DNA of 64,000 nt from positions 708-64,707 of IMG/VR virus record IMGVR_UViG_3300037603_000132. One strand, written 5' to 3'. Under the pieces are notes generated by a model. The model was not told the DNA's origin, did not search any database, and saw only the letters and a program-made list of their open reading frames with translations. Every line of letters begins with the position of its first letter. The first letter of the stretch is position 1. Position numbers and translations under genes: made by a program. Origin of the DNA: a virus. Its lineage: Duplodnaviria; Caudoviricetes. Positions 688 to 57,031 of this stretch are shown here, piece after piece.

Positions 688-927
688 ATGTCACCCCATG
701 ACCCCCAAAGCCCAGCCGGAGAGAGCCGCCCGGCTCGTCGGCTGCTCAAGATGGGCGAGGTCGAACATCGCGTGGGCCTCGATAAGCGCACGATCCACCG
801 GAAGGTGAAGGCCGAATCGTTCCCCAAGCCGGTCCCGCTGGGCGACCGCCGGATAGGCTTCTTGGAGCATGAGATCGAGGCGTGGATCGACGCGCGGATT
901 TCCGAGCGCGACGGGGGCGCTGCATGA
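688..927 (+). CDS. AlpA-family excisionase / transcriptional regulator
   Basis: LLKMGEVEHRVGLDKRTIHRKVKAESFPKPVPLGDRRIGFLEHEIEAWI matches the AlpA pattern; adjacent to the integrase. Confidence 0.88.
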   Translation: MSPHDPQSPAGESRPARRLLKMGEVEHRVGLDKRTIHRKVKAESFPKPVPLGDRRIGFLEHEIEAWIDARISERDGGAA

Positions 928-1757
928 GCGACGAATTTGACGATCTGCTCGGGCCTGCCCCGGTCGATTTCACCGAAGAGGAATACCAGAAGGCCGTCCA
1001 GGTCGTTCGCTCGAACCGGCGCGCGGCCACGTCCTTCGTGCAGCGCAAGCTGGGGATCGGCTACAACCGCGCCCACCAGATGATCGAGCGCATGGAGGCC
1101 GAGGGCGTCGTCGGCAAGCCGGACAATCGCGGCAAGCGCGAGATTCTGGGCGACGACGGGGAACCGCCCGCCGCGTCCTTCGCCAAGCCCGGCAAGCCCT
1201 CGCACGGCACCGACGCGGCAGTCGTCCAGGCGCTCCTGCGGCCCGTCTCGATCTCCTTCTTGGCCGACGTGCTGATGAAGGATCGCAAGAGCGTCACCAA
1301 GCGCCTCGCCAACCTGACCCCGATGGGCTACCACCGGGGCAACATCCCCCTCTACGACTTCCGGCAGGCGATGGGGTACCTCGTCACGCCGAAGATGGAT
1401 GCCGCCGAGGCGATCCGAAAGATGGGCGCGGACGATCTCCCGATTGGCCTCCAGAAGGATGTCTGGGACGCCCGGCTCAAGCAACAGAAGTGGATGGAGC
1501 AGGCGGGCGAACTCTGGCGGACGGAGGCCGTGCTGGAGGTCCTGGGTGAGGCGTTCCAGCGCCTCAAGACGACAACCCAGCTTTGGATCGACCAACTGTC
1601 GGAGTCCCACGCGCTGCCCGCCGATGTCCGCAAGGACCTGACCGCGATGGTTGACGGGTTGCAGCAGGACCTCCACGCCACCCTGGTCGAGATGCCGAAG
1701 GAGCGGGCGACGACGAACCAGCTTGCGGAGATCGAGGGGACGGACCTCGATGTTTAA
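924..1757 (+). CDS. Terminase small subunit (DUF1441/Nu1-like) with an N-terminal FtsK gamma domain
   Basis: N-terminus YQKAVQVVRSNRRAATSFVQRKLGIGYNRAHQMIERMEAEGVVG is FtsK-gamma-like; C-terminal GELWRTEAVLEVLGEAF segment is DUF1441-like; directly upstream of TerL. Start taken at ATG 924, overlapping the alpA stop. Confidence 0.8.
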   Translation: MSDEFDDLLGPAPVDFTEEEYQKAVQVVRSNRRAATSFVQRKLGIGYNRAHQMIERMEAEGVVGKPDNRGKREILGDDGEPPAASFAKPGKPSHGTDAAVVQALLRPVSISFLADVLMKDRKSVTKRLANLTPMGYHRGNIPLYDFRQAMGYLVTPKMDAAEAIRKMGADDLPIGLQKDVWDARLKQQKWMEQAGELWRTEAVLEVLGEAFQRLKTTTQLWIDQLSESHALPADVRKDLTAMVDGLQQDLHATLVEMPKERATTNQLAEIEGTDLDV

Positions 1758-1866
1758 GCGCCTCGTCTGCCAAGTGTTCCACTCCCGATACGCGATGTTC
1801 ATGGGGCTGTCCTCAGCGACCAAGGCCCCGATGTACCGCTGCCGAAAGTGCCGGAGGCGGTTCTGA
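1750..1866 (+). CDS. Small Cys/His-containing hypothetical protein (38 aa)
   Basis: MFKRLVCQVFHSRY...YRCRKCRRRF; overlaps the terS stop and the terL start. Confidence 0.45.
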   Translation: MFKRLVCQVFHSRYAMFMGLSSATKAPMYRCRKCRRRF

Positions 1867-3947
1867 TGGGGAAGTTCACGACCCTGGAGGAGATGATCCT
1901 GGCGACCGCCGAGGCCGTGCGCCCGCCGGAGCGCCTGACCGTGGCCCAGGCCGCCGAGAAGTACCGCTTCATCAACAACCCCGGCAGCTACGTCGGGAGG
2001 TACAAGAACAGCACCACGCCCTACCTCGTGGAGCCGATGGAGATGCTGACCTCCCTCGACTTCACGCAGATGGTGTTCGTCGGCCCCGCACAGTGCGGCA
2101 AGTCGGATATGTCGCTCAACTGGACGACCTACAGCACGATCTGCGACCCGGCGGACATGATGCACATCGACAAGAGCCAAGCGTCCGCGCGCGACTGGTA
2201 TCAGCGCCGGATCGAGAAGCTGTTCCGCGACAACCCGGAGGTGCGGAACCGGCTGCTGCCGGGTAAGCACAACCAAAGCACCTACTCCAGCCGCTTCACC
2301 TCCGGGATGCTCTACACCCTGTCTTGGCCGACCGTGAACGAACTGAGCGGTAAGCCCCTCGGGCGGCTCTGGCTCGCGGACTACGACCGGATGGACGAGG
2401 ACGTGGGCGGCGAAGGTTCGCCCTTCGACCTGGCCGTGCAGCGCATGAAAACCTTCGGGCGCTTCGGCATGTGCGCGGCGGAGTCCTCGCCCTCCAGGAT
2501 CACCGAGAACAGCCGGTGGATGCCCAAGACGCCGCACGAGGCCCCGCCCACGACCGGAATCCTCGCTCTCTACAACCGGGGCGACCGGCGGCGCTGGTAC
2601 TGGCCCTGCCTCGCCTGCGGGACCCCGTTCGAGCCGTGCTTTACCCTGTTCGAGTGGCCGGACTGCGAGGACATGCTGGAGGCTGCCGAGCAGGTCGTGA
2701 TGCCGTGCCCCCATTGCGGCCACAAGTACCGGGACGCGGCCCACGAGGAGAGCGGGACGCCCGGCAAGCGCGGCATGAACCAGCGCGGCTTCTGGCTGCG
2801 CGACGGCGAGAAGTTCGACCCCGAGACCGGCGAGATCACCGGGACCCCGATCAGGTCGCGGATGGCGTCGTTCTGGTTGAAGGGTCCGGCGGCAGCCTTC
2901 GCGGACTGGACGGACATGACGCTCAAGTACATCAAAGCGGTGGCGGAGTTCGAGGCGACCGGATCGGAAGAGGCCCTGAAAACGACGGTCAACACCGACC
3001 AGGGCCTCCCCTATCTCCCGGCGGGGCTGGAATCCGAGCGGCTGCCGGAGGAGTTGAAGGCGCGGGCACAGGGCAGCCTGGGCGAGCGCGTGGTCCCGGC
3101 GGACGTGCGGTTCCTGATCGCCACGGTGGACACGCAGAAGAGCCGGTTCGAGGTCCAAATCCACGGCGTCCGGCCCCACGGCGACATCGTTGTGATCGAC
3201 CGCTTCAAGATCAGGAAGTCCGAGCGGCTGGACGAGGACGGCGACCCGCTGCCGCTCAACCCCGGCTCCTACGTCGAGGACTGGCACCTCCTCGTGGATC
3301 GGGTGCTGATGGCCGAGTACCTGCTGGACGACGACTCCGGGCGGCACATGCAGATCAGGATGCTCGCGGTCGACTCCGGCGGCGCGGTCGGCGTGACCTC
3401 GAACGCCTACGACTTCTGGCTCTCCCTGCGCGCGGACGGACGGAACCTCCACCGCCGGGTGCTGCTGCTGAAAGGTGACGGGCGGCCCACGGCCCCGCTC
3501 GTGCAGATCGGCTACCCGAACGCGGAGCGGAAAGACCGGCGCGCCTCGGCCCGGGGCGAGGTCCCCGTGATGATGATTAACACCAACGCCGCGAAGGACA
3601 TGGTGAACAACATGCTGGGCCGGACGGACCCGGGTGGCGGCATGGTGTTCTTCCCCGAGTGGCTGCCGGACTGGTGGTACAGCGAACTCTGCGCCGAGAC
3701 CAAGACGGCGAAGGGCTGGGTGAACCCCGGCAAGCAGCGCAACGAGGCGTGGGACCTCATGGTCTACTGCATGGCCCTGTGCCACTCCAGCCGAATCAGG
3801 CTCCAGCACATCGACTGGTCGAACCCGCCCGGCTGGGCGCAGGAGTGGGACCAGAACGACCTTGTGTTCGCGGGTCCAAACAAAGGGTTTGATATTCACC
3901 CGAAAAGTGAATATGATCTATCGAAACTGGCCGAGCAGCTAGGCTAA
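1866..3947 (+). CDS. Terminase large subunit, lambda gpA family
   Basis: Walker A GPAQCGKS, LADYDRM Walker B, CPHCG zinc motif, ATVDTQ nuclease motif, RNEAWDLMVY. Confidence 0.95.
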   Translation: MGKFTTLEEMILATAEAVRPPERLTVAQAAEKYRFINNPGSYVGRYKNSTTPYLVEPMEMLTSLDFTQMVFVGPAQCGKSDMSLNWTTYSTICDPADMMHIDKSQASARDWYQRRIEKLFRDNPEVRNRLLPGKHNQSTYSSRFTSGMLYTLSWPTVNELSGKPLGRLWLADYDRMDEDVGGEGSPFDLAVQRMKTFGRFGMCAAESSPSRITENSRWMPKTPHEAPPTTGILALYNRGDRRRWYWPCLACGTPFEPCFTLFEWPDCEDMLEAAEQVVMPCPHCGHKYRDAAHEESGTPGKRGMNQRGFWLRDGEKFDPETGEITGTPIRSRMASFWLKGPAAAFADWTDMTLKYIKAVAEFEATGSEEALKTTVNTDQGLPYLPAGLESERLPEELKARAQGSLGERVVPADVRFLIATVDTQKSRFEVQIHGVRPHGDIVVIDRFKIRKSERLDEDGDPLPLNPGSYVEDWHLLVDRVLMAEYLLDDDSGRHMQIRMLAVDSGGAVGVTSNAYDFWLSLRADGRNLHRRVLLLKGDGRPTAPLVQIGYPNAERKDRRASARGEVPVMMINTNAAKDMVNNMLGRTDPGGGMVFFPEWLPDWWYSELCAETKTAKGWVNPGKQRNEAWDLMVYCMALCHSSRIRLQHIDWSNPPGWAQEWDQNDLVFAGPNKGFDIHPKSEYDLSKLAEQLG

Positions 3948-8784: not shown

Positions 8785-9141
8785 ATGAAGGTTCAAGCAC
8801 GTCACGCCATTATCCGCAAGGAAGGCAAGAAAACGGTCTCCCACCGGCCCAACGACAAGACGAAGGGCATTTTCGAGTGCCCCGACGACGAGGCACAGGG
8901 CTACATCGACATCGGCGCAGCCGTGAAGGTCGAAGAGGCCGAGGCCGCGCCTGCCAAGCCCAAGGCCAAGGGCAAGACTGCCGCCGAGAAGAAGGCGGAG
9001 AAGGAAGCCGCTGACAAGGCTGCCGCCGAGAAGAAGGCCGCCGCCGAGAAGGAAGCCGCTGACAAGGCCGCAGCCGAGAAGGCCGCAGCCGAGAGCGGCA
9101 GCGGTGAGGGCGAAGGCGACGACGAGGAGTTGCTGGGCTAA
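8785..9141 (+). CDS. Ala/Lys/Glu-rich protein at the gpFI position
   Basis: AAEKKA repeats; ends DDEELLG; RBS upstream. Confidence 0.75.
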   Translation: MKVQARHAIIRKEGKKTVSHRPNDKTKGIFECPDDEAQGYIDIGAAVKVEEAEAAPAKPKAKGKTAAEKKAEKEAADKAAAEKKAAAEKEAADKAAAEKAAAESGSGEGEGDDEELLG

Positions 9142-32454: not shown

Positions 32455-32790
32455 TCACTCCCCTGCCTCCCGGGCATCGGCTGGCAGCATCTCCAGCTTG
32501 CTCTCAACCCATGCGTCGATGTCGTCATAGCCTGCGAGGTGGACCCCCAGAGAGGCGCACCGCCGGACTTGGAGGTCGATGCGACGGAATTGGGTGCGCA
32601 GGGCTAGGCGGCGCAGAGCGGCGCGGTCCTCCACGGTCATCTGCTCGTGGTAGTACCGCCCGCTCATGGTCGCGCCGAACCCGTCACGGCAAACCGTGTC
32701 GCGGGCATCCCGCTCCATCTCCTCAATCGAGGCAAGGGCGCGCGAGATGTCGGGCAGATCGACAGGCTGAACTGCGGTATCCGCCATCAC
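32455..32790 (-). CDS. Hypothetical protein
   Basis: Coupled to the GapR-like gene. Confidence 0.55.
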   Translation of the reverse strand: MMADTAVQPVDLPDISRALASIEEMERDARDTVCRDGFGATMSGRYYHEQMTVEDRAALRRLALRTQFRRIDLQVRRCASLGVHLAGYDDIDAWVESKLEMLPADAREAGE

Positions 32791-33083
32791 ATGCCCAACG
32801 CTTCGCGGTACATCTGCAACACGGCTTCCTCTTCGGAGAGGTCGTCCTTGTCGCGCTTGCGCTCGGCAATGATCTTGCGCATGGCCTTGACCTCGTACCC
32901 ACGCGCCTTGGCCTCTGCGAACACCTCTTTGGTCTGTTCCGCGATGTCCTTCTTCTCTGCCTCCAGGCGCTCGATGCGCTCGATGAACTGGCGGAGTTCG
33001 TTGGCCGTCACCCGGTAGGTTGCATCGCCGGAGTTGTGGCCGGGGCCGGGGGCTTCGCCCAGCAGGTCCTCAGAGTCGCTCAT
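32787..33083 (-). CDS. gapR: GapR/DUF2312 (UPF0335) nucleoid-associated protein homolog
   Basis: ELRQFIERIERLEAEKKDIAEQTKEVFAEAKARGYEVKAMRKII...YREALGM is the DUF2312 signature. Confidence 0.9.
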   Translation of the reverse strand: MSDSEDLLGEAPGPGHNSGDATYRVTANELRQFIERIERLEAEKKDIAEQTKEVFAEAKARGYEVKAMRKIIAERKRDKDDLSEEEAVLQMYREALGM

Positions 33084-33337
33084 GCCGACGCCCCCGCTTC
33101 CTGCATCGCGCCCTCGAACTTCTGCATCGCCTGCTCGAAAGTGTAGACCTCGACGCCTGCCGGGATTCCGGTGCTATGCACGTCGGGGTGGCTGGTCAGG
33201 TGGAGCGTGTCGTCGTAGATCGTTCGGAGCGGGTGCCAGTCGTCCTCGATGAAGGTGCATCCGAAAGTCTTGCGGAGGACTTCGGCGTTGCGGGTCTTAC
33301 CGCAGCCTTGGGGTCCGTGGACGATTACCTCGGTCAT
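33080..33337 (-). CDS. Small P-loop-containing protein
   Basis: HGPQGCGKT Walker A in an 85-aa ORF. Confidence 0.7.
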   Translation of the reverse strand: MTEVIVHGPQGCGKTRNAEVLRKTFGCTFIEDDWHPLRTIYDDTLHLTSHPDVHSTGIPAGVEVYTFEQAMQKFEGAMQEAGASA

Positions 33338-45392: not shown

Positions 45393-45610
45393 CCGGGGCC
45401 AGGACCGTCTAGGGGCACAAAGTAGAGGACCGGCTAGGGGTCCAAAGTAAGGCCCGCGCGTACACCCCCGCGCGGGCCTATGCACGTCCGGGCGCGGGCG
45501 CACACGGGCACACGCGCGCACCTGGGCGCACACATACGCGCGCAGGCGGGCGGGCGCGGGCACACGGGCGCGCGCGGGCGCGGGCTGGCAGGGGCGCGGA
45601 TAGGGAAAGC

Positions 45611-45800
45611 CCGGCAGGGGCCAGCCCGGCGATCTCGTGCCCGGCAGGGGCCAGCCCGGCGATCTCGTGCCCGGCAGGGGCCAGCCCGGCGATCTCGTGC
45701 CCGGCAGGGGCCAGCCCGGCGATCTCGTGCCCGGCAGGGGCCAGCCCGGCGATCTCGTGCCCGGCAGGGGCCAGCCGGGCGATCTCGTGCCCGGCAGGGG
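45611..45800 (+). repeat. Tandem array of about 6.3 x 30 bp (ccggcaggggccagcccggcgatctcgtgc)
   Basis: Directly visible; one substitution in the sixth unit. Confidence 0.97.
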
Positions 45801-48615: not shown

Positions 48616-48708
48616 AGCGCGCCACACAAGCCGATTGAACGCAAGCCGGGCCGTTGTGCCCGGCTTTCGCTTGTCCGGCCCATGGGCGGCCCTGCGGCGG
48701 CCCCTGCG

Positions 48709-49141
48709 GCGATCTCGTGGCCCGTGGTGGCCCATGCCCTAGCGGCGGCCCGTGGTGGCGATCTCGTGGCCCCTGCGGCGGCCCTGCGGCCCGTGGTGGC
48801 CCTTTCCCCTATCCCCTGACCTATGGCGGCCCCTGCGGCCCGGCTGGCCCCTGCCGTGCGATCTCGTGCCCGGCTGGCCCGTGGTGGCGACCTCGTGCCC
48901 GGCTGGCCCGTGGTGGCGATCTCGTGCCGGGGCGGGGCCAGGTAAAGCCGGGGCCAGGTGAAGCCGGGGCCAGGCACGGGGGGCGGACGTGGTGGCGCGA
49001 CTCCGTCCGGCGATCTCGTGCCGGGCTGGCCCCTGCCGTGCGATCTCGTGCCCGGCGATCTCGTGCCCGGGTGGAATGGGCAGGGGGCGGTTGACGGGTG
49101 GACGGGTGGACGTGGTGGACGGGTGGCCCGGCGATCTCGTG
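48709..49141 (+). repeat. Dispersed co-oriented GCGATCTCGTG repeats (8 exact, 1 variant)
   Basis: Copies at 48709, 48758, 48858, 48887 (variant), 48916, 49010, 49040, 49055 and 49131. Confidence 0.9.
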
Positions 49142-49301
49142 CCCGGGTGGACGGGTGGCCCGGCATTGAGGGGGGCGAGGGGCCGCCGGTCTAGCGCGCG
49201 TGGGATTGTCCCTGAATCCGGGAATAACTGTTCATTGGGTGATTCGTGGGCTTGTCAAGCCTTGACATTGGGTCCCATCCAGGCGAATCGGGCTGACGCG
49301 G

Positions 49302-49313
49302 GGTGCGCAGAGC
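49302..49313 (+). other. Putative cos site (GGTGCGCAGAGC)
   Basis: Exact 12-mer I recall as the cohesive end of phage chi and relatives; lies in the long non-coding gap between the early genes and the primase, as in chi-like genomes. Confidence 0.75.
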
Positions 49314-50117: not shown

Positions 50118-52901
50118 TCAGCCCAGCAGATCGTCAATCTCGGCGGCCTCGTCGGCCTCGTTTTCCGCCGGAGCCTCGATCCAACGCGGCCCATCGCTGT
50201 TGCGGAAGAACCACACGGCGTTCTGCCCGTGGCGGCGCTTCTTCGGCATTTCCGTCCAGCCCGCGATCAGCTTGAGAGCCTTTCCGTAGGTCCGGGCGTC
50301 CGCGTTGCGATAGGGCTGGAGGATGGGGTCCAGACGCACGGCCTCATAGGCTTCGCGAGCCGTCACCATGTTCCGGTACACCAGGCGCTCGTCGTCGTCG
50401 TCCGCCGCGAAGCCGTCCGCGTCCACGATCACGTCGGTGGCCTTGTAGGGCGTGTCCAGCCACTCCTGGATCACCTCTGCGATGGTCTCGGTCGCCGTGT
50501 GGCGGCGGTTGCGCTCTGCGATCTGGCGCTGCTCGATGATCGCCTCGCGATCCTTGAGGCCGAGGTGCAGCGGCTTGGTTCCGGCGGCCTCGCGGGCGTC
50601 CAGGTAGGCTTGATACGCCTCGCCCCAGATCATCGCCCGGTTCGAGATCAGGAGGTCCTGGTCGATCTGGTCATACTCGTCGCCTTTGGCCTCCCAGACC
50701 CAGAAGCGGCGGACGGAGGTGGGATCGCTCAGAAAGTCGTCGTCGTTCGAGGTGGCCGCCATGACGGACTGGCGCGGGAAAGACATCTCCCGCCGCCCGT
50801 AGGCCAGGCGGATCGTGTCCTGCTGGGCGGAGAGGAAGTCCTTGACGACGTTGTTGTCGCCCCGGGCCTTCGACATCTCCGCGACCTCCATGAGCCAGTT
50901 GCCCCGCATCTGTTCGACGGCGCGGTCGATCTTCTCCATGTCCACGCGGAACTCGGAGAAGAACGCATCGGTCACGAGGTTGCGCAGGAAGGTCGATTTA
51001 CCGGCCCCTGTGAGGCCGCGCACGATCAACATCTGGTCGAATTTGCAGCCCGGCTCGTAGATGCGCGCCACCATGCCCATGAGGAAGAGCCGCGAGGACT
51101 CCCGGTGAAAGATCGTGTCGAGGCAGCCGAGGTAGGTCTGCGGCAGGCTGTTGATGTAGCCCGTCGGGGAGCCTGCGGCTTTCCACTCCTCCCAATGCCC
51201 CTCGATCATGTCCTTGACCGGGTGGATGGTGTTCTGCCGCCCAGCGGCCAGCACGGCGTCCTGGACGTTCTGGGTGGAGAAGTCGGTCTCGAACCCGGCC
51301 CGCCCCATGTTCGCGGAGCAGATCAGCTTGATCGACGTGTCGTCCGCGTCGGTCCAGCGCCGCCCGATCTTCTGCTCGATCTTGTTGAGCGGCGGCGAGG
51401 GCAGCTTGATCTTGGAGGACCTGATCTGCTTGAGGCAAACCGGGTCCATGGTGAACTCGTTGTAGCCGATTGCGTCACGCAACCGGGAATCGTTCTCGCA
51501 GATCAGGGTGACGTTGTTCAGGACCGGCTCCAGGTCGCCGTTGGCCTTCTTGCGAAGGTGGATCGACCAGCCCGTGCCCTTCTCCTTTTTCTTCTTCTTC
51601 TTGGGCTTCTCCTCCTCGTCCTCGTCGTCATCATCGAACTCGTCAGCGATGTCGCGCGGCCCGTCGCTCGCGCCGTCGTCATCGCCCGGCGCGGGGCCGA
51701 GGAGGTCGTCCAGATCGGAGTCCGCGGACTCGGATTTCCGGGGCTTGTCGCCCGGCCCATCGTCGTCGGGATCGTCGTCGTCCTCGTCCTCGTCGTCATC
51801 GAACTCGTCGCGCAGGTAGGAGAACAACTCGGCGGCAACCGCCTGATCCTCGTTCGCGAACTTGCTCATGGCCTTGAAGGACGGCAGGTTGGCGGGTGAG
51901 GTGTTGGCGGGGGACTTCTCGTCCAGGTGGCCGAACTTGTGGAGCCGCACGAGGTCGAAGGCGTTATGCAGGCCCTCCGCCGGGTCGGTCCCGTGGTTGG
52001 AGTGGAGGAACAGCCCGTCGTCATAGACCACGGCCCCGTTCGACCCCGAGCCTCCGGTGTAGGTGTAACGCGTCTCCGTTGCGCTCGTGCCCGGCGCGTA
52101 GATGTCGTCCAGGAACTCCGCAATCGCCTCCTCGACATCGTAGGCGCGGCAGAAGGCCCCGATCACCCCCGGCTTCTCGTGGGGATGCTCCATCTTGCGG
52201 TTGGGATCGACAACCCCGCGCTCGCGCTCGTCCTCCTGGTAAGGCAGGTAGGTGTAGTCCTCCCAGCCGTCATGCTGGGCCAGGTACTCGTCCACGTCGA
52301 GGATCGCGCCGCCCGGGTTGTCCTCCATCCAGTATTCCTGGCCCTTGGAGATCGAGGGCTTGAACATGACTTGGTTGAAGCGGAAGGAGACGAGATCGGG
52401 AATCTCGATAGCCTCGTCGGGATCGTCGGCCAGTTCGAGGGCCACCAGGCGGGTCAGCGCGTGGGTCTCGGTCGCGTCCATCGGTCGGCTGACCGGGATG
52501 ATGATGCGGACGCGCGGCTTCTCCGGGCAATGCGCCCGGGTCGTGTGCATGATCCAGTACCATTGGCTGATCTCGGCCAGCCCGAGGCGGATATGGTCAA
52601 GCTGGTCGATGGACACATAGTCCAGATCGAACGCGAGCATCGTCCGGTACTTCTGGTGGTCCAGCTTGCGCTTCCCGTCGCGGAAGTGCGCGGCCATCCA
52701 GTAGCCCGGGTATCGCTTCTTCTCCAGCTTGGCGTCCTGGTCCAGCGCCATGTACTGCGCGAAGGTGACGGACGTATCCACCATCGGCTCGGCCAGCAGG
52801 CGCTTGAAGCGCGCAAGGGTGGATTCCCGGTTCTTCACGCGCCCGAGGCCGGAGCCGGTGTTCACGCAATACTTGACCAGGTGGTTTTCGATGTCGCTCA
52901 T
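50118..52901 (-). CDS. Primase / VapE-like helicase (virulence-associated E domain)
   Basis: AFDLD, HTTRAH...RVRIIIP primase motifs; PGCKFDQMLIVRGLTGAGKST; RRFWV. Confidence 0.9.
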   Translation of the reverse strand: MSDIENHLVKYCVNTGSGLGRVKNRESTLARFKRLLAEPMVDTSVTFAQYMALDQDAKLEKKRYPGYWMAAHFRDGKRKLDHQKYRTMLAFDLDYVSIDQLDHIRLGLAEISQWYWIMHTTRAHCPEKPRVRIIIPVSRPMDATETHALTRLVALELADDPDEAIEIPDLVSFRFNQVMFKPSISKGQEYWMEDNPGGAILDVDEYLAQHDGWEDYTYLPYQEDERERGVVDPNRKMEHPHEKPGVIGAFCRAYDVEEAIAEFLDDIYAPGTSATETRYTYTGGSGSNGAVVYDDGLFLHSNHGTDPAEGLHNAFDLVRLHKFGHLDEKSPANTSPANLPSFKAMSKFANEDQAVAAELFSYLRDEFDDDEDEDDDDPDDDGPGDKPRKSESADSDLDDLLGPAPGDDDGASDGPRDIADEFDDDDEDEEEKPKKKKKKEKGTGWSIHLRKKANGDLEPVLNNVTLICENDSRLRDAIGYNEFTMDPVCLKQIRSSKIKLPSPPLNKIEQKIGRRWTDADDTSIKLICSANMGRAGFETDFSTQNVQDAVLAAGRQNTIHPVKDMIEGHWEEWKAAGSPTGYINSLPQTYLGCLDTIFHRESSRLFLMGMVARIYEPGCKFDQMLIVRGLTGAGKSTFLRNLVTDAFFSEFRVDMEKIDRAVEQMRGNWLMEVAEMSKARGDNNVVKDFLSAQQDTIRLAYGRREMSFPRQSVMAATSNDDDFLSDPTSVRRFWVWEAKGDEYDQIDQDLLISNRAMIWGEAYQAYLDAREAAGTKPLHLGLKDREAIIEQRQIAERNRRHTATETIAEVIQEWLDTPYKATDVIVDADGFAADDDDERLVYRNMVTAREAYEAVRLDPILQPYRNADARTYGKALKLIAGWTEMPKKRRHGQNAVWFFRNSDGPRWIEAPAENEADEAAEIDDLLG

Positions 52902-52947: not shown

Positions 52948-53298
52948 TTAGCCCAGCAGATCGTCCAGGTTCTCCTCCGGCGTCTCGGCCTCTTCGGGGG
53001 CCGCGTAGAGCGCGTAGTCGGGCAGGATGAACTCCACGAGATCGCACCAGTAGATCGGCTTTGCGCCTTTGGTCTCGCGGGAGGCCAGGATGATTCGACG
53101 CGCGACCCGAGTGCCGAGCGGTCCCTGCTCGCGGAGGGCCTTGTAGACGGTCTCGTTTGCGAAGCCGATGATCTTGGCGAACGCCTGCACGTCAAAGGCA
53201 TTACGGTCGGTTTTCAGGTGGGGGAACCGGGCAAAAAGCAGATCGTAGAGATCACCGAAAGCGTGGTCCCGGCGGGGCGTGGCGTTGGGTCGGAACAT
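52948..53298 (-). CDS. Cro-like HTH protein
   Basis: DVQAFAKIIGFANETVYKAL; divergent from the replication operon. Confidence 0.65.
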   Translation of the reverse strand: MFRPNATPRRDHAFGDLYDLLFARFPHLKTDRNAFDVQAFAKIIGFANETVYKALREQGPLGTRVARRIILASRETKGAKPIYWCDLVEFILPDYALYAAPEEAETPEENLDDLLG

Positions 53299-53463: not shown

Positions 53464-54048
53464 ATGAGCCTTGAAGAAGCACTGCGCGAGAACACCGCCG
53501 CGCTGAAAGAGAACACCGCCGCCCACGCCAAGCTGGCCGAAGTGGCTATGGCCGCAGCAGGCGGCAAGCCCGCCGCCGAGACCAAGACCACCAAAGCGAC
53601 CGAGAACAAGGCCGCCGAGGAGTCCTCCGACGACGAAGAAAAGACCGAGACCGCCGCCGAGAAGAAGAAGCGCCTGGCCGCCGAGAAGAAGGCCGCCGCC
53701 GAGAAGAAGGCAGCAGCCGAGAAGAAGGCCGCCGACAAGAAGAAGGCCGCCGACAAGCCTGATCCGGTCGCTGAGATCGACGCCGCCGGGCTGCACAAGA
53801 TCGCTGCCGCCTTCCTCAAGGGCGACGACGAAGAGGCCCGGGACGCCAACAAGGCGAACTTCGTGGGCGCTCTGTCGCACATCGGCGCGGCCAAGCTGGG
53901 CGAGATCGAGACGGACGCAGATCGCGGTCGCCTTGCCACCTACATCGCCTACTGGACCGCCGGTCTCGATGTGGACTTTGAAGAGATCGACGCCCTCGTT
54001 GAAGCTGCCGGTTCTGGCGGCTCCGAGGACGACGACCTGCTGGGCTAA
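53464..54048 (+). CDS. Ala/Lys-rich low-complexity protein
   Basis: AAEKKAAAEKK repeats; ends DDDLLG. Confidence 0.75.
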   Translation: MSLEEALRENTAALKENTAAHAKLAEVAMAAAGGKPAAETKTTKATENKAAEESSDDEEKTETAAEKKKRLAAEKKAAAEKKAAAEKKAADKKKAADKPDPVAEIDAAGLHKIAAAFLKGDDEEARDANKANFVGALSHIGAAKLGEIETDADRGRLATYIAYWTAGLDVDFEEIDALVEAAGSGGSEDDDLLG

Positions 54049-55035: not shown

Positions 55036-56400
55036 ATGGCCCACCGGCCCCTCACCAGCGAAGAGTGGCAGGCCGAGGTCTCCGAGTGGTTGAAGGATCA
55101 CAAGGGGGTCGAGGACAAGCCGGGCCGGGCCGCCAAGCCCGCCCACTCTTGGATGTCGCCCTCCAGCATCAGCCGGGGGATCGCGTGTCCGGGGTCCATG
55201 GCGCTCTGCGCGGAGATCAGCGAGCGGGAGGCCACGGTCTACTCCGCCGAGGGGACGGTCGCCCACTACGTCCGGGAGATGTGCCTGGAGTTCGACATGG
55301 AGCCGGACGACTTCGTGGGCATGTCGATGAAAGCCGACGGATTCTCTTTCGAGATCACCGAGGAGATGGCGGACAACCTGCGCCCGGGGATCGAGCGGAT
55401 CAGGGAGCGGCCCGGAAAGCTGTTCATCGAGTACCAGGTCAACCTCGACCGCTGGATGCCCGGGCAGTACGGCAAGCTGGACGTGGGGATCGTTTCCCCC
55501 TCGCTGATCGAGGTCAATGACCTGAAATACGGGGCCGGGATGCCGGTCTCCGCCGAGCGCAACGAGCAGCTTATGGCCTATGCGCTGGGCTTCTGGGAGA
55601 ACGTGGCCCGCCACATCTCCGAGGCTACCGAGTTCCTTCTGGTGGTGGATCAACCGCGCGCTAGAGGACGGCCAGACCAAGAAGAGGAGGACTTTGACGA
55701 TGAAGAAGATTTAGAGGCCGACGAGGCAGATCAGACTCCGGGGTGGGGAGGGGAGTGGCGCGTGTCGCTGCCGGAACTCCTCACTTTCGGGGACAAGATG
55801 AAAGACGCCTATGACGCGGCGATCTCTCCCGACGCCTGGCTGCGCGCTGGCCCCCATTGCCAGTTCTGCCCCCGCAAGGGGTCGTGCGACGAGCAGGCCC
55901 GGTACGCCCTGTCCCTGCTGCAAATCGAACTGCACGACCTGGACCCCGATGTCATCACGCTTCGGGATCACGGCGAGTTCACCGCGCAGCAGAAGGTCAA
56001 CCTGGCGCTCAACATCGACCGCGTGACCGCGTGGATGAAGGCGGTCTACGCCTCGATCCTCGGGGAAGCCCGGGCTGGCGGCCACGCCCCCGGCGCGAAA
56101 GTGGTGGAGGGCAGCCAAGGCCCGCGCAAGTGGCGCGACGAGAAAGCCGCGCTGGCCTTCATGCAAGATTATCTTCCGAAACCCGAGGACGCCTTTGCCC
56201 CGGCAAAGCCGCTGTCTCCGGCCAAGTTCGAGAAGATCAAAGGGATTCCCAAGGAGGCCAAAGCGGCGGTGAACGATCACGTCGTCAGGTCGCCCGGGAA
56301 GCCTGCCCTGGTCAGGGCAGGAGACTCAAGGAGGGCAATCGACATCGCGGACGAGTTCGATGACGACGACGAGGACGATGTTGACGATCTGCTGTCCTAA
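55036..56400 (+). CDS. DUF2800 Cas4-like PD-(D/E)xK nuclease
   Basis: SPSS...CPGS, EGTVAH, GKLDVG, VNDLKYG, HCQFCP. Confidence 0.88.
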   Translation: MAHRPLTSEEWQAEVSEWLKDHKGVEDKPGRAAKPAHSWMSPSSISRGIACPGSMALCAEISEREATVYSAEGTVAHYVREMCLEFDMEPDDFVGMSMKADGFSFEITEEMADNLRPGIERIRERPGKLFIEYQVNLDRWMPGQYGKLDVGIVSPSLIEVNDLKYGAGMPVSAERNEQLMAYALGFWENVARHISEATEFLLVVDQPRARGRPDQEEEDFDDEEDLEADEADQTPGWGGEWRVSLPELLTFGDKMKDAYDAAISPDAWLRAGPHCQFCPRKGSCDEQARYALSLLQIELHDLDPDVITLRDHGEFTAQQKVNLALNIDRVTAWMKAVYASILGEARAGGHAPGAKVVEGSQGPRKWRDEKAALAFMQDYLPKPEDAFAPAKPLSPAKFEKIKGIPKEAKAAVNDHVVRSPGKPALVRAGDSRRAIDIADEFDDDDEDDVDDLLS

Positions 56401-56455: not shown

Positions 56456-57031
56456 ATGACCAAGGACCCCCGCCGCGTTTACCTCAAGAATGTGCGGCTT
56501 TCTTACCCCCACCTCCACGAGCGCCAGAAGGCGAACGAGGATGCGGAGCCGAAGTTCTCGGCCTCCTTCCTGATCGACCCCTCCACGAAGTCGGGCAAGG
56601 AGAACATCAAGAAGATCGAGGCGGCAATCGAGGCGGCCAAAGAGGCTGCCGGATTCTCCGACAAGATCAAGTTCAAGGATGGCCGCATGTGCTTCTTCGA
56701 CGGTGAAGAGAACACCGACGACGAGGGCAACGTGAAGGACGGCTACGAGGGCATGATGGTCATCAAGGCGTCCAACAAGGACCCGGTGCGGCTGCTGACC
56801 CGGAAGAAGAAGGAGGTGGATCGAGACAACTCCCCCTTCTACGGCGGCTGCTACGTCGAGTGCATGTTGGGCCTCTTCGGGACCAAGAAGGGCGGTTCGC
56901 CTGGTATCTTCGCGAGCCTGGACGGCGTTCGCTTCTGGGAGGACGGCGAGTCCTTCGGCAAAGCCCAGATTGGCGACGACGAGTGGGACGACGACGAGGA
57001 TGACGAGGACGACGACGACCTTTTGGGCTGA
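56456..57031 (+). CDS. DUF2815 single-stranded DNA-binding protein
   Basis: NVRLSYPHL, KFSASFLI, FYGGCY, acidic tail. Confidence 0.88.
   Translation: MTKDPRRVYLKNVRLSYPHLHERQKANEDAEPKFSASFLIDPSTKSGKENIKKIEAAIEAAKEAAGFSDKIKFKDGRMCFFDGEENTDDEGNVKDGYEGMMVIKASNKDPVRLLTRKKKEVDRDNSPFYGGCYVECMLGLFGTKKGGSPGIFASLDGVRFWEDGESFGKAQIGDDEWDDDEDDEDDDDLLG

Follow-up and report, generated by a model that had tools for sequence, protein, structure and literature searches.

Small terminases choose the DNA that enters the phage head, and beyond a few model phages little is understood of how they find their sites. The locus described here raises the question of why such a protein should carry the DNA-reading domain of the bacterial translocase FtsK. 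We analyzed a stretch of 64,000 nucleotides (referred to as the window; positions 708 to 64,707 of the IMG/VR record IMGVR_UViG_3300037603_000132), in which one open reading frame (924-1757) had been interpreted as an FtsK gamma winged helix fused to a DUF1441/Nu1-like small terminase (TerS). The original prediction offered two roles for this gamma domain: an additional sequence-reading module for locating a cos site that is remote from the terminase genes, or a mimic that competes with host FtsK at its KOPS motifs. The features considered are collected in Table 1.

Table 1. Coordinates of the terminase genes, the domains of TerS and the cos region in the window.
Feature	Position	Strand	Basis and remarks
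alpA-like small HTH gene, translationally coupled to terS	688..927	+	Pfam Phage_AlpA, E 2e-12
terS, small terminase with inserted FtsK-gamma domain	924..1757	+	277 aa; P0001
N-terminal acidic peptide MSDEFDDLLGPAP, residues 1-13	924..962	+	Alignment A1 and motif count; shared by relatives that have gamma and relatives that lack it
FtsK_gamma winged helix, residues 18-75	975..1148	+	Pfam, phmmer, AlphaFold2 model; recognition helix N48-E58
Disordered linker, residues 78-93	1155..1202	+	AlphaFold2 pLDDT <50
Terminase core's own winged helix-turn-helix, residues 96-153	1209..1382	+	Predicted models
Long helices of the terminase core, residues 174-254	1443..1685	+	Models and PHROG_141; presumed oligomerisation/TerL-binding part
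Large terminase, gpA type (GpA_ATPase and GpA_nuclease)	1848..3947	+	Pfam; likely start ATG 1866 (comparison with the TerL of L012)
30-bp tandem array, 6.4 copies	45609..45800	+	Units with GCGATCTCGTG and CGGCAGGG, towards cos; candidate site
Polar short-repeat block left of cos	48620..49160	+	GCGATCTCGTG x8, GGCCCGTGGTGG x5, others, none inverted; candidate terminase-binding sites
cosN, exact 12-nt chi cohesive end GGTGCGCAGAGC	49302..49313	+	One exact copy in the window, non-coding

A search of the TerS sequence with Pfam matched FtsK_gamma (PF09397) to residues 18-75 with an E-value of 3.5e-21 and a score of 75.1 bits, the gathering cut-off being 30.6; the match covered positions 4-61 of the 63 in the profile. 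Searches of solved structures with phmmer returned the gamma domains of P. aeruginosa FtsK (E 3.4e-12) and E. coli FtsK (E 6.2e-12). The AlphaFold2 model of TerS, in which the gamma winged helix spans residues 18-74, showed pLDDT values >90 across the gamma domain, and Foldseek superposed this part of the model on 2VE8 and 2VE9 with a TM-score of 0.82-0.92, an rmsd of 1.1-1.8 A and 49-51% identity; the ranges over 2VE8, 2VE9 and 2J5P together were 0.75-0.92 and 1.1-2.8 A. The gamma winged helix was therefore correctly recognized in this reading frame, and at the right position. No Pfam match to the FtsK/SpoIIIE motor domain (PF01580) or to an N-terminal membrane anchor was found in the 277-residue protein.

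We then compared the residues through which gamma contacts its partners. Residues R41, G46-Y47-N48-R49, E55 and E58 of TerS correspond to R1289, GYNR 1294-1297, E1303 and E1306 of E. coli FtsK. Recognition of KOPS by E. coli FtsK depends on R1300, E1303 and E1306 (PMC2680272), and two of these three are kept in TerS, the equivalent of R1300 being Q52, with an unusual H51 beside it in the recognition helix. Sampled alphaproteobacterial FtsK proteins likewise have both glutamates and differ among themselves where E. coli has R1300; the recognition helix ends in ERME in TerS as in all FtsK proteins sampled. In E. coli FtsK, the nine-residue peptide RQFRIGYNR (1289-1297) is sufficient to activate XerD and also contacts DNA (PMC5052618). 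The corresponding TerS loop, RKLGIGYNR (R41-R49), is identical at six of the nine positions, including that of the critical R1289, but since the same residues contact both partners, conservation of the loop cannot separate a role in DNA binding from one in XerD binding. Eleven sister fusions, described below, have kept the fold-forming residues and vary at the specificity positions, with T, N, A, E, R, Q or S at the position of R1300 and E, D, A, G or K at that of E1303, where the glutamate is lost in nine of them. Such variation would be expected if each phage reads a site of its own and not one host motif.

The N-terminus of TerS places the gamma domain within the protein and not at its end. 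The terS ATG at 924 overlaps the stop codon of the alpA-like gene (ATGA), with a G-run 6 nt upstream, and all aligned relatives, with or without gamma, keep an MSDxxDDLLG N-terminus. This conservation supports the start at 924 and contradicts a translation start downstream of gamma. Reading through the terS frame, we found no in-frame ATG, GTG or TTG between gamma and the terminase core, so a TerS isoform lacking gamma is unlikely. In alignment A1 (24 relatives) the MSDxxDDLLG peptide and the core are common to proteins with and without gamma, which lies between them; where gamma is missing, its place is taken by a short, basic, low-complexity linker. Judged from this alignment, gamma was inserted after a conserved N-terminal peptide and not simply fused to the N-terminus, so that the original prediction was right about the two parts, though not about their arrangement. 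The architecture is not an assembly artefact, as another 11 protein clusters, drawn from NCBI, ENA and Logan assemblies, show it too, and the exact TerS protein was seen on eight contigs. The sequencing runs with a match were pond and biofilm metagenomes and one coded organism, with no RNA run among them.

The motif [DE][DE]LL[GS] contained in the N-terminal peptide occurred 10 times in the 57 predicted proteins of the window against 0.32 expected from shuffles, and eight of the copies were terminal. It was found in the products or segments at 924-962, 4179-, 8785-9141, 50118-52901(-), 52948-53298(-), 53464-54048, 55036-56400 and 56456-57031. It is N-terminal in TerS and in the portal protein (D[DE]LLGPAP), and lies at the extreme C-terminus of the primase/helicase, the exonuclease, the 56456-57031 product and three small proteins. 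By its distribution, the motif looks like a shared docking peptide.

The remainder of TerS matched PHROG_141 ('terminase small subunit') over residues 97-273 (E 2.9e-41, profile positions 5-180 of 183). Pfam DUF1441 spanned positions 1-145 of its 147 on residues 108-254, but its score of 24.6 bits fell below the cut-off of 35.1, and comparison with lambda gpNu1 gave no significant match in sequence or fold; PHROG_141 settled the assignment as a small terminase. The second HTH-like segment that had been proposed for the terminase part was recovered as a predicted winged helix, modeled as helix-helix-helix-hairpin over residues 96-153, whose Foldseek matches to MerR, Xis and TerS DNA-binding domains were weak (E >0.1). 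Foldseek gave no convincing solved relative for the fold of the core, the wide search being dominated by coiled-coil matches. As modeled, the product of 924-1757 is a protein with two DNA-binding-type domains. Its profile match and gene order make it a chi-like small terminase, with the gene for a gpA-type large terminase (TerL) immediately downstream, and the presumed role of its family is to bind the cos region and to form a ring that recruits TerL.

A small HTH gene overlaps or abuts the start of terS in the window (688-927) and in the related loci L012 (7840-8064), L219 (1-151) and L216 (1-51). In L012, where TerS lacks gamma, the alpA-like gene is coupled to terS in the same way, and the lytic Ruegeria phage DSS3-P1 and the Rhizobium phage RHph_X2_30 carry a small gene before terS that is annotated 'transcriptional regulator'. 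Beyond any role as an excisionase, this small gene may have been conserved as a partner of the packaging operon, or as its regulator.

To which phage does this terminase belong? PHROG assignments gave the order primase/helicase (50118-52901, minus strand), exonuclease, DNA polymerase, helicase and a repressor-like gene, followed by integrase, the alpA-like gene, terS, terL, portal, major head protein, tape measure and tail genes. The order of the portal, major head, tape measure, primase/helicase, polymerase and helicase genes is that of chi-like phages. The window is an integrated, temperate, chi-like (Casjensviridae) cos siphophage of a high-GC, probably alphaproteobacterial, host.

The cohesive end of phages chi, Siskin and Utah is a 12-nt 5' extension, GGTGCGCAGAGC (PMC4342425, PMC6498227), and the 23 bases to the left of its single copy in the window (region 49279-49313) are similar to the corresponding bases in Siskin and in the Achromobacter phage AchV4. 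The cos core and its left flank are common to enterobacterial chi phages and this high-GC prophage. Occurrence of the chi cohesive end in such a prophage indicates that the cos core is conserved across very distant hosts. One-mismatch copies of the 12-mer in V16, DSS3-P1, RcCWillis and RHph_X2_30 lie inside long open frames and were discarded as chance matches; among the chi-cos matches in relatives, only the AchV4 site is non-coding with a homologous flank. A 14-mer cos scan of viral contigs likewise gave scattered single matches attributable to chance. Joining the two ends of the prophage puts cos ~16 kb upstream of terS. The original prediction was right that cos is distant, but the distance does not explain gamma, since a separation of 10-16 kb is a family trait: in Siskin, where the record has been cut open at cos, about 10.8 kb separate cos from terS, and in AchV4 the homologous site lies about 15.3 kb upstream of terS. 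Both phages lack gamma.

We next asked how widely the fusion is distributed. PF09397 was present in 12 of the 80 terminase-family clusters recovered by homologue search (the query included), all of metagenomic or genomic origin. One of them is a 287-residue fusion of Sulfitobacter pontiacus (P0002, MFU1607308.1), whose NCBI name, 'DNA translocase FtsK', is misleading because the gamma domain is present and the motor absent. The gamma part was covered by none of the 349 isolated-phage records with a match. A gamma HMM run over six-frame ORFs within 8 kb of related terS genes at 53 IMG/VR loci found only the window's own record, and no gamma domain was detected anywhere in five complete Casjensviridae genomes (RcCWillis, RHph_X2_30, BcepNazgul, AchV4 and DSS3-P1). 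A scan of genome contigs returned only one unrelated Clostridiaceae gamma-domain match, and a search for longer homologues with the gamma region returned one FtsK and was uninformative. The survey of the fusion that had been suggested at the outset thus showed a patchy distribution, with no isolated phage among the carriers. Terminase cores 75-83% identical to that of TerS occur without gamma, and the sister prophage L012 has the same succession of integrase, alpA-like gene, terS (its start overlapping alpA) and terL, with a TerS that lacks gamma; P0009 and P0013 are further sisters without it.

Phylogenetic analysis pointed in the same direction. A maximum-likelihood tree built from the terminase core needs at least four gains or losses to account for the 12 fusions, and an AU test rejected their grouping as one clade (p 0.021). 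In the tree of the gamma domains, the other 11 fusions formed one clade with support of 100/99, and the gamma of our TerS fell outside it, with alphaproteobacterial FtsK gammas and a gamma-GapR fusion. Only 1% of bootstrap trees joined it to the other 11, its branch being long, and an AU test did not reject a single origin of all fusion gammas (p 0.356). Its identity averaged 43% to the other fusion gammas and 55%, with a maximum of 59%, to alphaproteobacterial FtsK gammas. Taken together, the gamma tree and these identities suggest that this TerS may have captured gamma independently, a second time. In two more distant members of the family, P0071 and P0080, the linker position (A1 columns about 30-100) is occupied by inserts of other kinds; that of P0071 aligns to gamma, lacks the GYNR loop and gives a faint MarR-like signal. 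From its pattern of occurrence, gamma in TerS is an evolutionarily labile accessory and would be dispensable for packaging as such, given the near-identical cores and L012 without it and the at least four gains or losses.

Gamma has also been joined to other proteins. The metagenomic protein P0231 consists of an N-terminal FtsK gamma and a C-terminal GapR, an architecture shared by P0111 and P0263, and a GapR-like gene in the window (32790-33110, minus strand) encodes a product that matches the C-terminal part of P0231 with 60% identity across 115 residues. Such proteins indicate that gamma is passed among DNA-binding proteins of several kinds, which probably belong to related phages. Among P0122-P0271 are many small proteins (about 150-450 aa) with two or three tandem FtsK-gamma domains, and P0270 combines gamma with an inorganic pyrophosphatase-like domain; non-FtsK uses of gamma are numerous, with 7954 representatives at E-values up to 1e-3. 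Its fusion to GapR and its tandem copies mark gamma as a portable DNA-binding module.

If gamma reads DNA in this phage, its sites should be sought in the genome. The canonical KOPS motif GGGNAGGG was not enriched in the window, with 12 copies against 19.4 expected. Together with the replacement of R1300 by Q52, this gives no positive support to the proposal that TerS mimics KOPS binding and competes with FtsK. Within 3.7 kb to the left of cosN, a set of short words shares one orientation. The word CGGCAGGG, which agrees with KOPS at seven of eight bases, occurs seven times in the 30-bp array and points to cos each time. The array units are 99% identical, suggesting recent expansion. Between 45629 and 49131 there are 14 copies of GCGATCTCGTG on the plus strand, six of them in the array, and a single copy lies on the minus strand elsewhere. 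Other co-oriented words are GGCCCGTGGTGG (five copies), CCCTGCGG (five) and GGTGGACG (four); several of the words in the block 48620-49301 never occur inverted, and an exact KOPS-like octamer, GGGCAGGG, points to cos at 49078.

The array word CCCGGCGATC is the element left of cos in phage Siskin, and CGGCAGGG also lies ~40 bp left of cos in AchV4, which has no gamma, so CGGCAGGG is not specific to gamma carriers. No other IMG/VR contig had the array word more than once, and a 16-mer repeat scan gave scattered single matches that we attribute to chance. Candidate repeat classes for gamma would be, for example, CGGCAGGG/GGGGCCAG or GCGATCTCGTG. The repeats left of cos sit at early promoters, and they could be targets of gamma, of the core domain, of a regulator or of a replication initiator alike.

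What, then, might gamma do on a small terminase? TerS proteins normally function as ring oligomers. In FtsK, three gamma domains of the hexamer clamp one 8-bp KOPS and fix the direction of the motor. In the protein described here, the gamma winged helix interrupts a flexible linker near the N-terminus, in front of the winged helix that belongs to the terminase itself, and since TerS normally forms a ring, several copies would be displayed around it on tethers of ~15-30 residues. We infer from this arrangement that gamma most likely provides the terminase ring with accessory, multivalent recognition of phage DNA at or near cos, a reading to which we assign a probability of about one half. It would provide a second reader, for a short motif, with a geometry as in FtsK, and may add affinity, specificity or polarity to the loading of the terminase or to termination; the strictly co-oriented repeats left of cosN are its candidate targets. 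We counted in favor of an accessory reader the intact fold, the kept contact loop and helix, the placement in the linker and the polar repeats near cos, and against it the near-identical cores that lack gamma, the promoter location of the repeats and the presence of CGGCAGGG in AchV4. A more specific proposal, that the gammas of the ring read the 30-bp array and the candidate 48.6-49.2 kb block for FtsK-like, KOPS-guided loading, appears to us improbable; under it, the repeats would set the direction of loading, or would make an arriving motor halt and cleave at the following cos. The repeated gain and loss of gamma at one linker position and the altered specificity residues also raise the idea that gamma may be a swappable 'address reader' that keeps the packaging signals of related phages apart.

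An accessory reader of phage DNA has to be weighed against a gamma that still reads a KOPS-type motif of the host and recruits the terminase, or this protein by itself, to the host chromosome, where it could compete with FtsK, place packaging at the nucleoid or favor mispackaging of host DNA. The closer relationship of the TerS gamma to alphaproteobacterial FtsK gammas than to fusion gammas (means of 55% and 43%) and the kept ERME end would fit such a role, and binding of host DNA was raised as a possibility by the authors who described the Bacillus phages Sam46 and Sam112 (PMC8190038). We nevertheless consider it unlikely, as Q52 with its unusual H51 neighbor replaces R1300, the E1303 equivalent is gone from nine of the 11 sister fusions, and GGGNAGGG is not enriched in the window. 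A cos terminase of the gpA (lambda) type needs cos cleavage to start and to finish, and binding to KOPS alone would therefore not package host DNA.

The patchy distribution, with its four or more changes on the terminase tree, the other inserts of P0071 and P0080 at the same spot, and the faster evolution of gamma than of the core (among the fusions, gammas share about 60% identity and cores about 70-80%) could also be read as signs of a nearly neutral passenger, captured by recombination into a tolerant, disordered linker and now being lost. This we hold to be quite improbable, because gamma is intact in 12 of 12 clusters, with its fold residues and GYN[KR] loop conserved at 38-60% overall identity, which argues for purifying selection; moreover, 11 of the 12 belong to one well supported gamma clade (100/99), indicating that the insert persisted through much divergence. 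Finally, gamma might contact a tyrosine recombinase, either host XerD or the adjacent phage integrase, and couple packaging to excision or to the resolution of dimers or concatemers. The resemblance of residues 41-49 to the XerD-activating peptide (six of nine positions) and the location of terS two genes from an integrase prompted this thought, to which we give very little weight: the loop residues contact DNA as well and do not discriminate, the neighboring integrase pairs with an AlpA-type gene and need not be XerD-like, the int-alpA-terS layout exists without gamma, and a benefit for a late packaging protein is not evident.

The family offers a natural comparison, in which near-identical cores in the same layout have or lack a well-understood reader of ~60 residues whose specificity residues vary. 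Such pairs make it practical to ask whether an added reader alters the specificity, direction or fidelity of packaging. The locus is also a second, independent instance in which a protein for phage packaging has taken over the direction-finder of the host chromosome pump. As a practical matter, public annotation gives such gamma-terminase genes the wrong name, 'DNA translocase FtsK'.

Comparison with known systems sets these observations in context. The gamma domains of E. coli and P. aeruginosa FtsK (2J5P, 2VE8, 2VE9, 5DCF) have the same fold as that of TerS, with ~50% identity and the GYNR loop kept, but in TerS no FtsK motor is attached, R1300 is replaced by Q, and the domain is internal, whereas it is C-terminal in FtsK. 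Lambda gpNu1 is similar in outline, with an N-terminal winged HTH and helical parts for oligomerisation and TerL binding, encoded upstream of a cos-cutting, gpA-type TerL; however, cos adjoins Nu1 in lambda and gpNu1 has a single DNA-binding domain, whereas here cos is ~16 kb away and two domains of DNA-binding type are predicted. The chi-like small terminases of DSS3-P1, vB_RpoS-V16, chi, Siskin and BcepNazgul belong to the same core family and share the order of terS followed by a gpA-type terL. Those of the Ruegeria phages DSS3-P1 and vB_RpoS-V16 are 73-74% identical to TerS over residues 77-277, the close chi-like relatives in A1 also have the MSDxxDDLLG peptide, and chi and Siskin have the same 12-nt cohesive end; the small terminases of these phages differ in having no gamma.

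[quoted passage not shown] The two cases are alike in having a small terminase with a gamma domain of putative function. Sam46 and Sam112 are headful (pac) myophages of Firmicutes with a Terminase_2 core, whereas the TerS described here has a PHROG_141/DUF1441 core and a gpA-type TerL, and belongs to a temperate siphophage with a cos site. Since Pfam found no match to Terminase_2 in this protein, the Sam46-type and chi-like gamma fusions are independent. What is new here is the occurrence of gamma in another terminase family, in a cos phage whose host belongs to another phylum, as an internal insertion with repeated gain and loss.
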